Below are positions 93 through 6,350 of a stretch of 6,350 bases of DNA, piece after piece. Location: positions 1-6,350 of IMG/VR virus record IMGVR_UViG_3300014922_000002; one strand, 5' to 3'. Each line of letters opens with the position of its first letter. The first letter of the stretch is position 1. The notes below the pieces were generated by a model, which saw nothing but the letters and a program-made list of their open reading frames with translations, had not been told where the DNA came from and searched no databases. Origin of the DNA: a virus. The translations under genes were made by a program, and so were the position numbers.

Positions 93-959
93 AATCCGGA
101 TTCTATTTCTGTTCGAGAAAATTCTAATTTATGGGCTATTCTTGGAGACTCTCCGAACTTAAGTTTAAAATTCTCCGTTCTTGCTCTTCGTCAGGCTGAA
201 GCTCTTCAGAAATGGAAAGAAATTACTCAGTCTGTAGATACGAATTATAGAGACCAGATTAAGGCTCATTTTGGAGTAAACGTTCCGCAGTCTGAATCTC
301 ATATGGCTAAGTATATTGGAGGTATTGCCCGCAATCTTGATATTTCTGAGGTTATTAATCAGTTTTTGCCTGCTGATTCAGATTCTCAGGCTTACATTTA
401 TGGTAAAGGCGTCGGCTCTGGTCAAGGTTCTATGATTTTTAACACTGATTCTGGATATTATATCCTTATGTGTATTTATCATGCTGTTCCTCTTTTGGAC
501 TATGCATTGAGTGCTCCTGACGGTCAGCACCTTGCTACTTCTGTTGAAGACCTTCCTATCCCGGAATTTGATAGTATTGGTATGGAGTCTGTCCCCGCTG
601 TTGAATTGATGAATTCTTCTTTGTATTCTAATGTGAATTCTGCTGATAAGATTCTTGGTTATAATCCTAGATATTATAATTGGAAAACTAAGATTGATCG
701 CATTCATGGTGCATTTACTACAACTCTTAAAGATTGGGTCGCTCCTATTGATGATTATTTCTTGTATTCTTTGTTTGGAGGAAAACTTTCAACATATAAA
801 GGTGTTACTTGGCCTTTTTTCAAAGTGAATCCGAATACTCTTGATGACATTTTTGCTGTTAAGGTTGATTCTGTTTGGGATACCGACCAATTGTTGGTCA
901 ATGCTAATGTTGGTTGTTATGTTACCCGACCCTTGTCTGCTGACGGAGTCCCTTATTAA
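1..959 (+). CDS. VP1: Major capsid protein VP1, C-terminal part (continuation of 5295..6258); stop TAA at 957-959
   Basis: The frame with codons starting at position 3 is open from the window start. Upstream of the track's first Met it reads ...FSVLALRQAEALQKWKEITQSVDTNYRDQIKAHFGVNVPQSESHMAKYIGG.... The joined length is 964 + 959 = 1923 nt, i.e. 640 aa. The track ORF 303..959 is just the Met-to-stop tail of this gene. Confidence 0.93.
   Translation, partial: SGTFHQFKTRTESVNTGATSTEKSTEIFPRNPDSISVRENSNLWAILGDSPNLSLKFSVLALRQAEALQKWKEITQSVDTNYRDQIKAHFGVNVPQSESHMAKYIGGIARNLDISEVINQFLPADSDSQAYIYGKGVGSGQGSMIFNTDSGYYILMCIYHAVPLLDYALSAPDGQHLATSVEDLPIPEFDSIGMESVPAVELMNSSLYSNVNSADKILGYNPRYYNWKTKIDRIHGAFTTTLKDWVAPIDDYFLYSLFGGKLSTYKGVTWPFFKVNPNTLDDIFAVKVDSVWDTDQLLVNANVGCYVTRPLSADGVPY
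854..921 (+). repeat. Degenerate direct repeat, copy A (inside the VP1 3' end, encodes AVKVDSVWDTDQLLVNANVGCY)
   Basis: Ungapped hand alignment with 966-1033 (offset 112 nt) gives 45/68 identical positions, with identical blocks tgctgttaaggtt, attct, caattgttg and gttatg. Confidence 0.8.
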
Positions 960-1545: not shown

Positions 1546-2664
1546 ATGGGCTTTCTTGACTTTATTCCTGTTGTTGGTCAGGTTGCTTCTGCTATTGGTG
1601 ATGCAGCTAGTGTGAATAGCTCTAACCGCACTAATATGCGTATTAACCAGATGAACAATGAATTCAATGCTGCGGAAGCTGAGAAGTCTCGGCAATTTCA
1701 GCTTGATATGTGGAATCGTGAAAATGAGTACAATAGTGCATCTGCACAGCGTTCTCGTCTTGAATCTGCTGGATTGAATCCTTATTTGATGATGAACGGA
1801 GGTAACTCCGGTATTGCTAGCTCTGTTGGTTCTTCTTCTTCTGCGTCTGCATCCTCTCCTTTGGCTATGCAGCGTCAGGATTTCTCAGGTCTTAGTAATG
1901 CTTTGTCTTCTGCTCTTCAGATTGCTAATCAGACTAAGGAAACAAATGCTAATGTTCAGTCTCTTCAGAGTCAAAAGTCTCTTTATGATGCTCAGGCAAA
2001 TAGTATTTTATCTAATATTGATTGGTGGAAATTAGGTCCTGAATATAAACACTGGTCTCAAGTGACTGGTCTTGCCCGTGCTGGTTTACAGTTTCAGACT
2101 GATAGACAAAATCTTCGCAATCTAAGTTGGTCTGGTCATTTGGTTCAGGCTCAACGTATTGGAGTTCTATTGGACAATAAGAGTAAGTCGGTTCTTAATA
2201 AGTATTTGGATGAAGGTCAGCGTCTTCAATTGGACTTAATGGCAGCTCAGTATTACGATTCTATGGCTTCTGGTCATTTGAAATATCAACAGGCTAAATC
2301 TGAGATTACTAAGCGTATTCTTATGTCAGCTGAAGCTAATGGTTTGCATATTAGTAATGATATCGCAGCTAAAACTTCTGAAGGTTACATAAAGGCTCTT
2401 AATGCAGAGTATGCTGCGTCTTATGATGTTAATTCTCCGTTTTCCGAAGGAAAGGATTCTTATGTCCCGGCTTCTGTATTGAAGGCTCGTATGGATGCCC
2501 TTAATTCTAAGTGGCAATTTGACAAGCGTTATTGGTCTGAAGGTCTTAATGCTCTTGGTGTCATTGGAAATGCTGTTGGTAACGTAAGTAATCTTCGTAA
2601 GCCCGCTTCTCGTAGTACTTCCGTGCCCGGCAATAGGTCTTACAATCGCTATGATAGTCGGTAG
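1546..2664 (+). CDS. VP2: DNA pilot / minor capsid protein VP2 (phiX174 H analogue)
   Basis: 372 aa. It has a Gly/Ala/Ser-rich N-terminus (MGFLDFIPVVGQVASAIGDAAS), then EKSRQFQLDMWNRENEYNSASAQRSRLESAGLNPYLMM. The R-x-x-x-AGLNP segment is the hallmark I recognise in microvirus VP2 proteins. The remainder is Gln/Ser/Ala-rich and predicted helical. It sits downstream of the capsid module. Confidence 0.85.
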   Translation: MGFLDFIPVVGQVASAIGDAASVNSSNRTNMRINQMNNEFNAAEAEKSRQFQLDMWNRENEYNSASAQRSRLESAGLNPYLMMNGGNSGIASSVGSSSSASASSPLAMQRQDFSGLSNALSSALQIANQTKETNANVQSLQSQKSLYDAQANSILSNIDWWKLGPEYKHWSQVTGLARAGLQFQTDRQNLRNLSWSGHLVQAQRIGVLLDNKSKSVLNKYLDEGQRLQLDLMAAQYYDSMASGHLKYQQAKSEITKRILMSAEANGLHISNDIAAKTSEGYIKALNAEYAASYDVNSPFSEGKDSYVPASVLKARMDALNSKWQFDKRYWSEGLNALGVIGNAVGNVSNLRKPASRSTSVPGNRSYNRYDSR

Positions 2665-2737
2665 GCCTCCGTGGCCTGAACGGCTCTCAGGCAACAGGAC
2701 GCGAGTAGCGTCCCTTAGTGACTAACACCTTGATATC

Positions 2738-2781
2738 GGCAGAGCCGCACACCACGCTCATAGAGCGGGTGCAGCTCTGTC
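2738..2781 (+). other. Long imperfect hairpin (about 15-16 bp, loop ATA); possible terminator of the VP1-VP2 transcription unit or a Rep/primase recognition structure
   Basis: Pairs are 2740-2745 with 2774-2779 (cagagc/gctctg), 2747-2750 with 2769-2772 (gcac/gtgc), and 2755-2759 with 2763-2767 (cgctc/gagcg). It is followed by a T/C-rich stretch but not a clean T-run. Confidence 0.5.
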
Positions 2782-2864
2782 CTTATCCTCTTTCATTAGG
2801 ATGCTTCTCTTCTGATTGACAACTGTCGTTCCTTCCCTTTATACCCCTTAAAATATATATCACT

Positions 2865-2874
2865 GGCGAAAGCC
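2865..2874 (+). other. GGC-GAAA-GCC mini-hairpin containing the exact octamer GCGAAAGC
   Basis: Read directly: ggcgaaagcc. d(GCGAAAGC) is the classic extraordinarily stable ssDNA mini-hairpin. The loop is GAAA only on the + (packaged, mRNA-sense) strand. Confidence 0.6.
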
Positions 2875-2886
2875 TATTTCATTTAT

Positions 2887-2920
2887 CCCGAAAGGGTTTT
2901 CGGTTAATCTCCGCCGAAAA
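2887..2920 (+). other. CCC-GAAA-GGG hairpin immediately followed by a 7-bp hairpin ttttcgg(10 nt)ccgaaaa, with alternative pairing
   Basis: cccgaaaggg lies at 2887-2896. ttttcgg (2897-2903) pairs with ccgaaaa (2914-2920). tttcgg (2898-2903) can alternatively pair with ccgaaa (2888-2893). Confidence 0.55.
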
Positions 2921-2982
2921 CTCTCTTCCTCTTGCCTTATTTTAGATAAATGACAGTGTTTCTTCAAAAAAAAATCTAATTG

Positions 2983-3014
2983 TTTGCATTTAAAAAAAAT
3001 AATTCTTTTATTTG
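2983..3014 (+). promoter_or_regulatory. Candidate Bacteroidota-type promoter: -33 TTTG (2983-2986), 20-nt spacer, -7-like TTTATTTG (3007-3014; consensus TAnnTTTG)
   Basis: It is the only extended A/T-rich non-coding segment (2941-3037), directly upstream of the small-ORF/Rep gene block. TTTGCA occurs at 2983 and 3011, and TTTGAC at 3032. The match to the -7 consensus is imperfect. Confidence 0.35.
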
Positions 3015-3037
3015 CACTGTATTTTAAATGATTTGAC

Positions 3038-3238
3038 ATGTTCGTATCTTCTGTTATAGTTGTGTTCTCTTCTGAGGATGACTCTTCGTTGCAGTCTGCC
3101 TCTATTCATCTTACTCCTTCTGTAGGATGTACTCTTTCTCATACTATCGAATTCGTTAGTAAGAATCCTATAGTAAAGTCTTATTTAAGGAATAAATATC
3201 GTATTATTAATTTTACTTTTAAATATTCGAAGTTATGA
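3038..3238 (+). CDS. Hypothetical 66-aa protein (hydrophobic N-terminus, basic C-terminus)
   Basis: Third-codon-position T is 38/66 by hand count, matching the coding bias of the recognised genes. Its stop overlaps the next start (ATGA at 3235-3238), suggesting translational coupling. It is the only gene lacking the TTATG start context, so its start or reality is less secure. Confidence 0.5.
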   Translation: MFVSSVIVVFSSEDDSSLQSASIHLTPSVGCTLSHTIEFVSKNPIVKSYLRNKYRIINFTFKYSKL

Positions 3239-3432
3239 AAATTACACCTCAACAATGGATTGAAGTGGTTAAATTGATTTCCACTTTTATTATTGGTCTT
3301 ATTACGGCTTTGTACATTCAGTCTTGTACTGCCTCTATGTCTATTTCTAAGTATAACAGTAATTCTACTCAGAATACTGAGCAAACTTCTTCTTCTTCTG
3401 TGGATTCGACTAAAATAAATATTAACCGTTAA
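3235..3432 (+). CDS. Hypothetical 65-aa membrane-anchored protein (one N-terminal transmembrane or signal-anchor segment, possible lipobox-like IQSC, Ser/Thr/Asn-rich tail)
   Basis: Translation is MKITPQQWIEVVKLISTFIIGLITALYIQSCTASMSISKYNSNSTQNTEQTSSSSVDSTKININR, with hydrophobic stretch about aa 11-29 (nt ~3265-3321). Start context is aagttATG. The codon-register antisense shadow ORF 3181..3384 indicates NNT codon bias in this frame. Confidence 0.6.
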   Translation: MKITPQQWIEVVKLISTFIIGLITALYIQSCTASMSISKYNSNSTQNTEQTSSSSVDSTKININR

Positions 3433-3444
3433 AATTATTTTGTT

Positions 3445-3633
3445 ATGGAAAAGAAAATATCTCCTAAATCTGAAAGTGTGTATCTTGTATCTGTTAGACC
3501 TAAGGCTTCAAATGCTCAAGGACAGGTTTTTGTTGTATCTTCGTCTTCTCTTGATTCGTTTATTGATACGCATCTTACCCCTGATTCCGTGTTATTGATT
3601 GATACCGTTGACACTTATGGCATAGATGTATAG
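3445..3633 (+). CDS. Hypothetical 62-aa protein (acidic C-terminus)
   Basis: Third-position T is 33/62 by hand count. Start context is ttgttATG. Its stop TAG lies 2 nt before the VP4 ATG (tagttATG), the same junction geometry as the 170-aa/VP2 pair (tgattATG). Confidence 0.55.
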   Translation: MEKKISPKSESVYLVSVRPKASNAQGQVFVVSSSSLDSFIDTHLTPDSVLLIDTVDTYGIDV

Positions 3634-3635
3634 TT

Positions 3636-5288
3636 ATGATTAATCAGGAAGTCATAGATAAGTATCTTCGCGCTGATTGTCTTAACCCTGTTAAGGTATA
3701 TAATAAGTACACTCACGAACTATTGTATGTTCCTTGTGGACATTGTTATTCGTGTTTGAAAAATAAGTCGAATCGTGATACCTCCCTTGCCATGAATATC
3801 GCTTCTAATTTTAAATATTGTTATTTTGTCCTGCTTTCCTATTCGGAAGATTTTCTTCCTCGTATGGAAATGATTAAAGAGGATGACCTTGGTAATGGTC
3901 GGATTAATTACACATTCCGTTCCGTTAATCGCAATATGGTTGTTTTAGGTAATAAGAAAGGTAACCGTGGTAGTAACATAGTCCTTAACGATGAAGAGTT
4001 CGAGTTTACTCATTCTATGACTCCTACTGACTATCGAGATATTATTGTTAAATCTCATGGTCGTTTTGATTTTTCTCATAAGTGCGTTACTTACCCTCTG
4101 TTTGAAGATTGTGACAACCTTATCCCTTGTTGCAATACTTCTGATTGCCAGAAGTTTCTTAAAAGATTACGGTTTCATATTAAAGCTAAATATAATGAAG
4201 AAATTCGTTTTTACGCTGTTTCAGAGTATGGTCCTCGGTCATATCGTCCGCATTGGCATCTGCTATTATTCTTTAACTCGGAACAAGTCGCCAAAGTTAT
4301 ATCACAGCATGTATCTGAGAGTTGGAGCTACGGTAATACAAATTGTGAACTTTCGAGAGGAGGCTCTGCTTCCTATGTTGCGTCTTACGTTAACAGTAAT
4401 GTATGCCTACCTTCACTATATATCGAGCACAAGGAGATTAAGGCGCGTTCCCTCCACTCTAAAGGATATGGAAACAATCATGTGTTTCCCAAAGAAGGAA
4501 AGATATATGATATTGAACAAATGTCCTCTGTCCTCCTTAATGGAGAGAGCATTTCTGTTAATGGTAAAGCTCAGACTATCTTCCCTTCACGGTCGTATAA
4601 ACATACCGTATTCCCCAGATTCTGCAACAATGTTTGTAAATCTCCACGTGGGAGTGCTCTCTTATTTTCAGCAGCGTTCTTTGCACCCGAAAGGCTCGTT
4701 TGTCTCGGATATTTGGACATAACTTATAATAAAAAGGATTCCCCTGTATCTGAGCTCGCTCATGCTTATACAGACTTCTTTTTGGACCGCGAGGACAAAG
4801 GTTTTATTCATTCTGATGATGAACTTATAGTTGCTTCTGTTCGTCTTGATGCTCCTAATCGCCGGTATTGGCATTGTCTTACTTATAATCAGATTTATAG
4901 CAAATTCTACCGTTTGTTTAATATGGTAATCCGGTCTGCTAGATTTTGGAATCTTTTTGCTTATGCTGATTTATATCGTCGAGGTGCTATTTATAATCTT
5001 ATGGAAGCTTCTGATAACTATTGGAATGAATATGCTCGACGTCGTCTTCATGATTATTTCGAGTTTCTTGAAAATTGTAACGATAAGCAGCGTTCGTTCT
5101 TGTTTCATCGTACTACGTCTCATGAAATCTTTAATTCTACTGAAGATATTAAACGTGATTATTCTTATGACCCTGTTTTATCTCAAAAATTCCTTGATGA
5201 GTTAACCGCTGACAATCGGAAGGCGTGCGTAGATAAGGTTAAACATAAGGAATTTAATGATTTATCAGGATTATTGTTAACTAATTAA
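3636..5288 (+). CDS. VP4: Rolling-circle replication initiation protein VP4 (HUH endonuclease, phiX174 protein A homologue)
   Basis: 550 aa. It has an N-terminal C-x2-C-x2-C (PCGHCYSCL, nt 3735-3755), motif I YFVLLSY (3822-3842), the HUH motif RPHWHLLLF (His codons 4251-4253 and 4257-4259), and the two-tyrosine catalytic motif SYVASYVNS (Tyr codons 4374-4376 and 4386-4388; compare phiX174 A YVAKYV). A double stop TAA TAA lies at 5286-5291. Confidence 0.93.
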   Translation: MINQEVIDKYLRADCLNPVKVYNKYTHELLYVPCGHCYSCLKNKSNRDTSLAMNIASNFKYCYFVLLSYSEDFLPRMEMIKEDDLGNGRINYTFRSVNRNMVVLGNKKGNRGSNIVLNDEEFEFTHSMTPTDYRDIIVKSHGRFDFSHKCVTYPLFEDCDNLIPCCNTSDCQKFLKRLRFHIKAKYNEEIRFYAVSEYGPRSYRPHWHLLLFFNSEQVAKVISQHVSESWSYGNTNCELSRGGSASYVASYVNSNVCLPSLYIEHKEIKARSLHSKGYGNNHVFPKEGKIYDIEQMSSVLLNGESISVNGKAQTIFPSRSYKHTVFPRFCNNVCKSPRGSALLFSAAFFAPERLVCLGYLDITYNKKDSPVSELAHAYTDFFLDREDKGFIHSDDELIVASVRLDAPNRRYWHCLTYNQIYSKFYRLFNMVIRSARFWNLFAYADLYRRGAIYNLMEASDNYWNEYARRRLHDYFEFLENCNDKQRSFLFHRTTSHEIFNSTEDIKRDYSYDPVLSQKFLDELTADNRKACVDKVKHKEFNDLSGLLLTN

Positions 5289-5294
5289 TAAATT

Positions 5295-6350
5295 ATGGCA
5301 CATTTTACTGGTTTAAAGTCTTTGCAAAATCATGTTCATAAATCTGGTCATGATTTGTCTGCTAAAAATTGTTTTACAGCGAAAGTTGGTGAATTACTTC
5401 CTGTATGGTTTGATTTTGGTATCCCGAATTCTACTTACAAGTTTGACCTTGAGTATTTTACTCGTACCCGGCCTGTCCAGACTTCTGCGTACACCCGTAT
5501 TCGTGAGTATTTTGATTTCTTTGCTGTACCTTGTAATTTGATTTGGAAATCATTTGATTCTGCTGTGATTCAAATGGGAGAAAAAGCTCCTATTCAGTCT
5601 AAGGATTTATTGACTAATCTTTCCATTAAAGGTGATTTGCCTTACTGTTCTTTGTCTGACCTTGCTACAGCCTTGTTTTCTGCCGGAGGTAATACTCCTT
5701 TAGGTAAAAGTGTTCACGTCGTTAGAGATTTTGCTAATATCTTTGGATATAACCGTGGTGATGTTAACCATAAATTGTTATCCATGTTGGATTATGGTAA
5801 CGTTGTCGTTAAAGGTTCGACCAACATTGGAACTTCAGCGAATCGTTGGTGGAATTGCTCGGCTGCTCCTACTAGTTCTGACTTGATAACATATTCTCAA
5901 GCGTACAATGTAAACCTTGCTGTTAATCTTTTCCCGCTTGCTGCTTATCAAAAGATTTATCAGGATTTTTTCCGTTGGTCTCAATGGGAAAACGCAGACC
6001 CTACTTCCTATAATTTTGATTGGTATACCGGTTCTGGTAATCTTTTTGGTTCTTCAGGTATTTCTTCTATAATTCCTCCTACTAATGATTATTGGAAACG
6101 AGATAACCTGTTTTCTCTTCGTTATGCTAATTGGAATAAGGATAAATTCATGGGAATTCTTCCGAATTCTCAGTTTGGTGACCTTGCTGTAGTTGACCTT
6201 GGTACAGTATCTACTTCTGGTTCTAAGATTCCCGTAGGTGCTTATGACGGAATTAATGATTCTGGAACTTTCCACCAGTTTAAAACTAGAACCGAATCTG
6301 TTAATACCGGTGCTACTTCTACCGAAAAAAGTACTGAAATCTTTCCAAGA
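5295..6350 (+). CDS. VP1: Major capsid protein VP1 (phiX174 F homologue), N-terminal part; the ORF is open to the window end and continues at position 93 (equivalent to 1..959)
   Basis: ATG at 5295 is followed by 352 sense codons with no stop to 6350. Translation is MAHFTGLKSLQNHVHKSGHDLSAKNCFTAKVGELLPVWFDF...RPVQTSAYTRIREYFDFFAVP...LFSLRYANWNKDKFMGILPNSQFGD, which I recognise as microvirus capsid signature segments. It is missing from the ORF track only because it has no stop within the window. Confidence 0.93.
   Translation, partial: MAHFTGLKSLQNHVHKSGHDLSAKNCFTAKVGELLPVWFDFGIPNSTYKFDLEYFTRTRPVQTSAYTRIREYFDFFAVPCNLIWKSFDSAVIQMGEKAPIQSKDLLTNLSIKGDLPYCSLSDLATALFSAGGNTPLGKSVHVVRDFANIFGYNRGDVNHKLLSMLDYGNVVVKGSTNIGTSANRWWNCSAAPTSSDLITYSQAYNVNLAVNLFPLAAYQKIYQDFFRWSQWENADPTSYNFDWYTGSGNLFGSSGISSIIPPTNDYWKRDNLFSLRYANWNKDKFMGILPNSQFGDLAVVDLGTVSTSGSKIPVGAYDGINDSGTFHQFKTRTESVNTGATSTEKSTEIFPR
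6259..6350. repeat. Terminal redundancy copy 2 (identical to 1-92)
   Basis: Same 92-nt string as 1-92. The reading frame of the capsid ORF is continuous across the join (codon 6258-6260 corresponds to 6258 + positions 1-2). Confidence 0.95.

Follow-up and report, generated by a model that had tools for sequence, protein, structure and literature searches.

A conserved, folded region behind VP2 of an uncultured microvirus is probably a replication origin carried on the packaged strand

We analyzed a 6,350-nucleotide (nt) stretch of the IMG/VR record IMGVR_UViG_3300014922_000002 (hereafter, the window; coordinates refer to it, and the + strand is the strand as presented), focusing on the hairpin-rich, noncoding region that follows its VP2 gene and that we propose to be a replication-origin region. 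The window holds one circular microvirus genome of 6258 nt, with positions 1-92 being repeated at 6259-6350, and the + strand carries all of its genes. According to the list of open reading frames (ORFs), VP1 extends from 5295 over the circle junction to 959, followed by a scaffold-like ORF (1031-1543) and the gene for the pilot protein VP2 (1546-2664; stop codon TAG at 2662-2664). A gap of ~370 nt separates VP2 from the next ORFs, namely, three small ORFs (3038-3633) and the gene for Rep (VP4; 3636-5288), a HUH endonuclease that is the expected cutter of the core motif described below.

A first-pass annotation had described positions 2663-2936 as a GC-rich, ORF-free chain of at least seven stem-loops separated by polypyrimidine tracts. 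Exact counting confirmed the G+C content of ~60% directly after the VP2 stop codon (72/120, i.e., 0.60, in 2661-2780), relative to 0.496 for 2663-2936 and 0.377 for the 6258-nt genome unit. No ORF of at least 40 amino acids (aa) lies inside 2663-2936 on either strand, so the absence of ORFs held for the interior; however, two minus-strand ORFs (2326-2694 and 2860-3039) overlap its edges, and only these. Folding of 2655-2945 yielded -99.9 kcal/mol as RNA (z = -6.1) and -42.7 kcal/mol as DNA (z = -4.0), and in both cases none of 200 dinucleotide shuffles equaled the native value. At least eight stems were counted (i.e., two pseudoknot stems, P3, P4, P5, two mini-hairpins, and H3), in agreement with the earlier figure, and polypyrimidine tracts are indeed present, with pyrimidines making up 69% of 2772-2862. 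The picture of hairpins throughout stood only in part: comparative support for stems is limited to 2664-2771 (module 1) and 2865-2920 (module 2), whereas a consensus fold sought in relatives' alignments for the pyrimidine-rich 2772-2860 was not found. The pyrimidine-rich spacer (2772-2847, + strand) carries the conserved motifs TCCTTAT, TTAGGA, and a terminal CCCTTTATACCCC (2835-2847). The region is conserved and structured across relatives and is functional, as had been supposed, rather than spare or captured DNA.

The structure of module 1 was written on an alignment of 52 copies having the window's 5' domain, to which the pairing values below refer (relatives and references compared with the window are numbered L009-L181); all of its elements lie on the + strand. 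An H-type pseudoknot (2664-2683) combines stem S1 (GGCC 2664-2667/GGCC 2673-2676) with stem S2 (CCGT 2669-2672/ACGG 2680-2683). More specifically, the conserved core of S1 (2665-2667/2673-2675) is 90% paired and displays CG/GC covariation, and S2 is 100% paired with two covarying pairs (CG/GC at 2669:2683 and UA/CG at 2672:2680). P2, a helix of 3 base pairs (bp) between AGG 2689-2691 and CTT 2714-2716 that is 95% paired and changes on one side (wobble) only, encloses hairpin P3 (GGACGC 2697-2702 with GCGTCC 2708-2713, loop GAGTA, within 2689-2716), which is 98% paired, with both sides changed in 5/6 pairs. Mini-hairpin P4 (2737-2747) is a CGGC-AGA-GCCG triloop hairpin (pairs 2737-2740/2744-2747) and is 100% paired; its pair 2739:2745 was seen as GC, AU, CG, and UA, and its loops in relatives as GAA, GGA, or AAA. 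In L178/L179, which keep the core, P4 comprises 5 bp (CGATCGGAGATCG). Hairpin P5 (2750-2771) pairs CACC 2750-2753 and CGCTC 2755-2759 with GAGCG 2763-2767 and GGTG 2768-2771, leaving A2754 bulged; it is 98% paired, both sides have changed in 6/9 pairs, and the closest relative, L076, carries the compensation CACGCC/GGGCG. Standard pairs occupied 90.8% of module 1 cells, versus 38-43% when the 3' partners were slid by 1-3 columns; 16 pairs had changed on both sides, and the covariation score was reached by 0/500 shuffles. Compensatory changes among the 52 sequences thus support the pseudoknot, P3, P4, and P5.

Several other models of module 1 were rejected. A closing helix P1 (2655-2660/2719-2724) forms 6 bp in the window but did no better than shuffled controls in relatives; RNAalifold on a MAFFT alignment of all types returned fragments plus a long-range GGG/CCC helix that conflicts with the covarying pairs at the base of P5; and all-against-all column covariation was swamped by clade structure. 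We also observed that the minimum-energy DNA fold of the window pairs CGGCTCT 2681-2687 with AGAGCCG 2741-2747, in competition with S2 and P4; this pairing is only partly kept in relatives and may be due to chance or represent an alternative conformation.

The linker between P2/P3 and P4 (2717-2736), unpaired in the comparatively supported structure, is the seat of the core motif CACCTTGATATCG (CACCTTG|ATATCG; 2726-2738, + strand), and 2729-2737 are unpaired in the minimum-energy DNA fold as well. This core is identical at 11/13 positions to phiX174 CAACTTG|ATATTA, with CTTGATAT being shared exactly; the phiX174 record annotates the viral-strand rep_origin at 4306, within CAACTTG|ATATTAATAAC, and G4 holds the same 30-mer origin. 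Independent BLAST matches revealed that the core is invariant across six divergent microviruses, in which CACCTTGATATCG-hairpin-CGCACACCACG is retained and the hairpin stem compensates (GGC/GCC, GAC/GTC, GCC/GGC); invariance is read from these BLAST matches only, as the pattern searches reported below fixed the core by the pattern itself. The Rep protein matches Pfam REP_ORF2-G2P (3.4e-15) and, weakly, Phage_GPA, and it contains the HUH motif PHWHLLLF and the two-tyrosine motif SYVASYVN, for which phiX174 gpA has HFHAVHF and Y343-VAK-Y347-VNK, respectively. Given the likeness of the core to the phiX origin and the near-identical tyrosine motif of Rep, we predict that Rep nicks between G2732 and A2733; P4 begins 4 nt 3' of this position. 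The full 30-nt phiX origin was not found in the window, since hairpin P4 (CGGCAGAGCCG) stands downstream of ATAT, not TAATAACACTATAGACCAC. As a separate observation, Chlamydia phage Chp2 (L072) contains TTGATATTAA once, inside ORF5 (~4323-4332, + strand); these are the ten phiX174 origin bases around the nick and mark a candidate gokushovirus origin.

Module 2 was present in 26 distinct copies, all on the same strand and all in the lineage of the window (termed the sense lineage, as its element is co-oriented with the genes), including Dulem virus 257/236. Its mini-hairpin MH1 (2865-2874, + strand; GGC-GAAA-GCC, i.e., GGCGAAAGCC) is conserved in the 26 relatives, with a GAA loop in 14 and a GAAA loop in 12, and is joined by a conserved linker to mini-hairpin MH2 (2887-2896, + strand; CCC-GAAA-GGG, i.e., CCCGAAAGGG), the stem of which is invariant and the loop of which is GNA or GNNA in 25/26 relatives (GAA, GGA, GTA, GAAA, GCAA, GTAA, and GGAA were seen). 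Hairpin H3 (2897-2920, + strand) pairs TTTTCGG 2897-2903 with CCGAAAA 2914-2920 around a loop with a conserved TTAATCTC; it is 100% paired, with both sides changed in 7/7 pairs, and 338/338 cells of module 2 are paired. A conserved tail, CTTGCCTTATTTTAGATAAATGACA (2931-2955, + strand), is kept in the 26 sense-lineage copies, including Dulem virus 257/236 with their different module 1; judged by eye, it is not dif-like.

GGCGAAAGCC is identical to G4 3976-3985, the core of hairpin I, which lies within the annotated "RNA primer of replication" and adjoins the annotated "origin of compl. strand synthesis." A 2026 review whose authors discovered "mini-hairpin DNA" (PMC13037366) describes GCGAAAGC and GCGAAGC as DNA mini-hairpins of extraordinary stability to which single-stranded DNA-binding protein (SSB) binds poorly, GNA and GNNA loops being two forms of such stable hairpins; it adds that primase starts G4 complementary-strand synthesis at the GCGAAAGC site, that tandem CGGCGAAAGCCG is likewise a poor SSB binder, and that a CCGAAGG-type mini-hairpin is present in RSF1010 ssiA. 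We also noted that CCCCGAAGGGG stands just 3' of the phiX ori. Overall enrichment of mini-hairpin motifs was modest (58 on the element strand versus 17 on the other) and is not used as an argument. By analogy with G4, module 2 is a candidate complementary-strand start site. The earlier proposal that the whole region is a complementary-strand origin gains specific support for module 2, with its G4 hairpin core GGCGAAAGCC, but not for module 1, the best conserved part, which on sequence grounds is most likely primarily a viral-strand origin, a role that the first-pass annotation had not considered.

Taken together, we consider it likely, though well short of certain, that 2664-2955 is the replication-origin region of the phage and acts mainly as folded single-stranded DNA (ssDNA) on the packaged (gene-sense, T-rich) strand; with its phiX-like and G4-like hallmarks, it is best described as a structural variant of known microvirus origins. 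Motifs, conservation, covariation, and strand assignment are what we observed, and from them we infer the following biochemical steps. The incoming viral strand would fold upon entry, and its SSB-resistant GNA/GNNA mini-hairpins together with H3, and perhaps the module 1 fold, would recruit host primase or RNA polymerase, such that primed complementary-strand synthesis would yield the replicative form. The HUH Rep (VP4) would then nick CACCTTG|ATATCG at G2732|A2733 on the element strand, and rolling-circle synthesis would run from the 3'-OH at the nick. After one round, the regenerated site, single-stranded between hairpins, would be cut and rejoined, thereby releasing a circular viral strand.

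Comparison with known systems supports this description and also marks its limits. Like the phiX174/G4 viral-strand origin, the element has a closely similar nick sequence (CAACTTG|ATATTA versus CACCTTG|ATATCG, 11/13), lies on the T-rich strand, and is accompanied by a HUH Rep with a Y-x3-Y motif (YVAKYVN in phiX, YVASYVN in the window, where cutting is predicted). Unlike the phiX site, which is located inside the rep gene, the window site is noncoding and GC-rich, it lacks the 30-mer's AT-rich spacer and distal portion, and it is set within a covarying fold consisting of a pseudoknot and three hairpins. Similarly, the element resembles G4 oric, of which hairpin I with GCGAAAGC is primase-dependent, in being an intergenic hairpin cluster on the presumed packaged strand and in containing an identical GGCGAAAGCC of the mini-hairpin class that resists SSB (PMC13037366). 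In contrast to G4, the MH1 stem has 3-4 bp rather than 8 bp, the 3' CTG start and counterparts of the other G4 hairpins are missing from the window (a comparison with G4 hairpins II and III revealed no similarity), and the host of the window phage belongs to the Bacteroidota rather than being E. coli; priming in the window is putative. Rolling-circle plasmids with double-strand and single-strand origins (dso/sso) and RSF1010 ssiA/ssiB likewise have a Rep nick beside hairpins and a separate, strand-specific, orientation-dependent ssDNA signal; TAGCG(T/A) near the nick may resemble the CS-6 element of ssoA, which is a lead rather than a result. The comparison with RSF1010 ssiA concerns mini-hairpin motifs only, i.e., the CCGAAGG type (PMC13037366). 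Structured noncoding RNAs (ncRNAs) of phages and gut bacteria in Rfam share a length of ~110-260 nt, a pseudoknot, covariation, and GNRA-like loops with the element, but the latter has no Rfam match and an orientation tied to DNA strand bias.

As for distribution, the entire region is retained at ~81% in Dulem virus 244/245 and MT837631, the genomes of which are ~77% identical, and the 5' part (2662-2790) also matches distant microviruses by BLAST. Exact-core pattern searches returned 18-55 IMG/VR contigs, nearly all microvirus-sized, and 101 metagenome stretches, mostly microvirus-sized and including several named as human-gut assemblies; combined, these searches gave distinct module 1 copies in 140 microvirus contigs. 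A protein-based search for relatives with Rep found one near-identical genome only and was set aside. The element and the genes run in the same direction in the window's lineage (Rep of ~550 aa), whereas in a second lineage (Rep of ~330-350 aa) the element occupies the other strand, a short way past the rep stop. This antisense arrangement accounts for 98 of the 122 judgeable contigs (L009-L070 and many of L077-L177); in L058, for example, the core lies at 4604-4633 on the + strand and all genes are on the - strand.

The element strand contains more T than A in 140/140 contigs, which agrees with the first-pass idea of an element acting on the packaged strand. Counted on the gene strand, four-fold degenerate sites were A 0.14, C 0.13, G 0.09, and T 0.64 in the sense genomes (24), and A 0.62, C 0.12, G 0.13, and T 0.14 in the antisense contigs (98). 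Gene-strand T was 0.52 in phiX174, 0.51 in Chp2, and 0.66 in SpV4, in all of which we take the gene strand to be the packaged strand. Furthermore, wobble cells in the fold comprised 85 G·T versus 3 A·C, indicating that, in the two lineages alike, selection acts on the fold of the element strand. No Bacteroidota-type promoter (TAnnTTTG) was found at a fixed distance on the element strand of the antisense lineage; TTTG-N20-TATATTTG lies there on the gene strand beside the element, mirroring window 2983-3014. Thus, element orientation tracks the strand with the ssDNA-type T bias seen in phiX174, Chp2, and SpV4 and not transcription, which fits a role in single-stranded viral DNA. An independent RNA gene, our initial idea from the orientation flip, was dropped because strand bias is mirrored and an element-strand promoter is absent.

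As the element is always on the T-rich strand, the second lineage would package the strand complementary to its genes. The sequences therefore suggest that this lineage is negative-sense, i.e., that it consists of gut microviruses packaging the antisense strand. Complementary-strand genes are essentially unreported in Microviridae (Roux et al., PMC3394797), and our literature searches on microvirus origins, structured RNAs, and negative-sense microviruses returned nothing relevant. A cultured gokushovirus, Bdellovibrio phage phiMH2K (L073, NC_002643), drew our attention separately: its gene-strand four-fold sites are A-rich and G-poor (A 0.45, G 0.07), unlike the T-rich phiX174, Chp2, and SpV4, and 8/8 of its TTGATA/CTTGAT motifs are on the minus strand.

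Rep sequences of the two lineages can be aligned at catalytic motifs only, and yet the fold is nearly unchanged between them, so the fold is probably host-read or part of a mobile cassette, of which Rep would read the nick motif only. A direct comparison of the origin 5' domain plus core between L043:2848-2932 (sense) and L058:4549-4633 (antisense) showed 77/85 identical positions, whereas protein identity between these two genomes is no higher than 23%, over part of VP1, with no Rep match; moreover, both gene polarities contain each 5'-domain type. This pattern suggests that origin cassettes have been exchanged between unrelated microviruses. The cassette probably moves between co-infecting phages or is held by a non-Rep factor, presumably of the host, and the latter would again fit a role in complementary-strand priming. 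A wider reading, to which we give even chances, is that of a portable folded-ssDNA origin cassette with a DNA pseudoknot that is largely host-read, moves between unrelated lineages, and always marks the packaged strand, with a large human-gut clade packaging the antisense strand. In addition, we came across a CRISPR array with 47-nt repeats at ~8400-8700 of L044 (IMGVR_UViG_3300008060_000094), of which the 30-nt spacer GAGCGTTAGCACCTTGATATCGCCAGAGGC matches the origin core; because this contig also encodes a Cas9 fragment (HNH_4, RuvC_III) and Cas1, it derives from a bacterium whose type II system targets the origin.

Several points weigh against interpreting 2664-2955 as an origin. Support throughout consists of motif similarity and comparative analysis; covariation cannot separate DNA from RNA; C-to-T mutation pressure on the element strand might have raised the G·T count; and in the window's lineage, where the element is co-oriented with the genes, an additional role in the VP1-VP2 transcript is conceivable. 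The window shares no more than the first 13 nt of the 30-nt phiX origin, which is located within gene A and does not depend on hairpins. We know of no origin for which a conserved DNA pseudoknot has been described. Nor is the motif universal: Dulem virus 257/236, whose module 1 differs, carry CTTGATGT or CTTGACGT there. A second CTTGATAT occurs in the VP1 coding sequence (window 339-346, + strand; AATCTTGATATTTC). As to module 2, the G4 CTG start (3996-3998) was sought 3' of MH1 and is absent, TATTTCATTTAT following instead, and H3 also fits a transcription terminator, a terminator-like site having been scored at 2893-2924. It may be added that in Dulem virus 257 (L180:3540-3640) and 236 (L181:3550-3650), the segment replacing module 1 is likewise GC-rich and structured and contains CTTGATGTTTGC or CTTGACGTTTGC, possibly a variant nick site.

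These points feed two alternative readings in terms of DNA signals. Module 2 and its flanks could be ordinary expression signals, i.e., intrinsic terminators of the late operon, made up of short GC hairpins with T runs after them plus H3, followed by the promoter of the next operon, as the terminator-like site, the T-rich sequence after both GGCGAAAGCC and CCCGAAAGGG, and the Bacteroidota-type promoter at 2983-3014 would suggest. However, a single terminator-like site does not differ significantly from the 0.5 expected in shuffles, the stems measure just 3 bp, the 10-mer is exactly that of the G4 oric hairpin core, and module 1 is left unexplained; we therefore see this as a minor possibility, and one compatible with, rather than exclusive of, an origin. 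Somewhat less probable still is that the region serves complementary-strand synthesis only, with the phiX-like CTTGATAT being coincidental and the true nick elsewhere, e.g., at VP1 339-346. A fold kept in phages with barely alignable Reps is what a host-recognized signal would produce, G4-like mini-hairpins are present, the fold is always on the T-rich strand, and the CTTGATAT in VP1 is conserved in sense-lineage genomes. Yet the VP1 copy encodes a conserved peptide, RNLDISE, and this coding constraint explains its conservation; it is absent from that position in the antisense lineage. Only one unpaired stretch of the element is completely invariant, and it is the one with the 11/13 match to the phiX/G4 nick site; a nick site is indispensable to every rolling-circle phage, and none was found that would be a better candidate.

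A structured RNA, either a 3' untranslated region element of the VP1-VP2 transcript or a small ncRNA gene used for phage expression or against host defense, would account for the RNA fold (z = -6.1), the covariation with compatible G·U pairs, the GNRA-like loops, and, in the window, sense co-transcription directly after the VP2 stop. This alternative, raised by the first-pass annotation, is disfavored and in our view quite improbable, because a scan of 2600-3000 against Rfam 15 gave no match at E ≤ 10 (ARAGORN found no tRNA or tmRNA either), the element is antisense to all genes in 98 contigs without a fixed-position Bacteroidota-type promoter, its orientation tracks the T-rich strand rather than transcription, the alternation of GNA and GNNA loops is typical of DNA mini-hairpins (PMC13037366) and not of RNA, and the invariant core matches a DNA nick site. 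Even less credit goes to an attachment site for lysogeny or captured host DNA, for which we retain only a very slight probability: the composition is unlike that of the rest of the genome, some Bacteroidota microviruses are reportedly proviruses, and one contig (L086) joins bacterial genes to a microvirus, but a scan for the core, and the core only, in one genome each of 185,579 bacterial/archaeal species gave just six matches, which have no flank similarity and are attributable to chance, and covariation is not expected of a duplex recombination site. In L086 itself (1-10289; OGMW01001653.1), genes for Hsp33, a methyltransferase, and a PLD-family protein are joined to an antisense-lineage microvirus whose sequence begins near VP1 codon 105 (position 5806) and is cut off within the origin fold by the end of the contig. 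This contig represents an assembly chimera or else a defective insertion; as a prophage, it was rejected as uninformative for an attachment site, since its junction is inside VP1 and not in the element. A packaging signal, also put forward in the first-pass annotation, may be a further alternative.

Downstream, the proposed origin region is bounded by a Bacteroidota-type promoter for the small ORFs and Rep (2983-3014, + strand), composed of TTTG at 2983-2986, a 20-nt spacer, and TTTATTTG at 3007-3014, in place of which relatives carry TATATTTG; the Bacteroidota promoter consensus is reportedly TTTG/TAnnTTTG, and the promoter is outside the finding itself. A near-perfect sigma-70-type promoter (TTGACA, 16 nt, TATAGT, with TG; 11/12) at window 3033-3060 overlaps the ORF start at 3038; it is odd beside Bacteroidota-type signals and may be due to chance (2 found, 0.7 expected).

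In the literature we searched, origins were defined only for phiX174-like coliphages, and nothing was described for the microviruses that dominate the gut. A candidate origin is now proposed for these microviruses of gut viromes, and its precise predicted nick site, covariation-backed fold, and putative priming module make the replication of uncultured phages testable. The nick site would also offer a natural zero point and a strand convention for thousands of metagenomic genomes. A CRISPR-targeted cassette common to phages with unrelated Reps bears, in turn, on phage recombination and host prediction. If the strand inference is true, the rule that the family is positive-sense (PMC3394797) would fail for a common gut clade, which would comprise the first negative-sense members of Microviridae, and both the way in which an infection begins and strand-aware virome methods would be affected.

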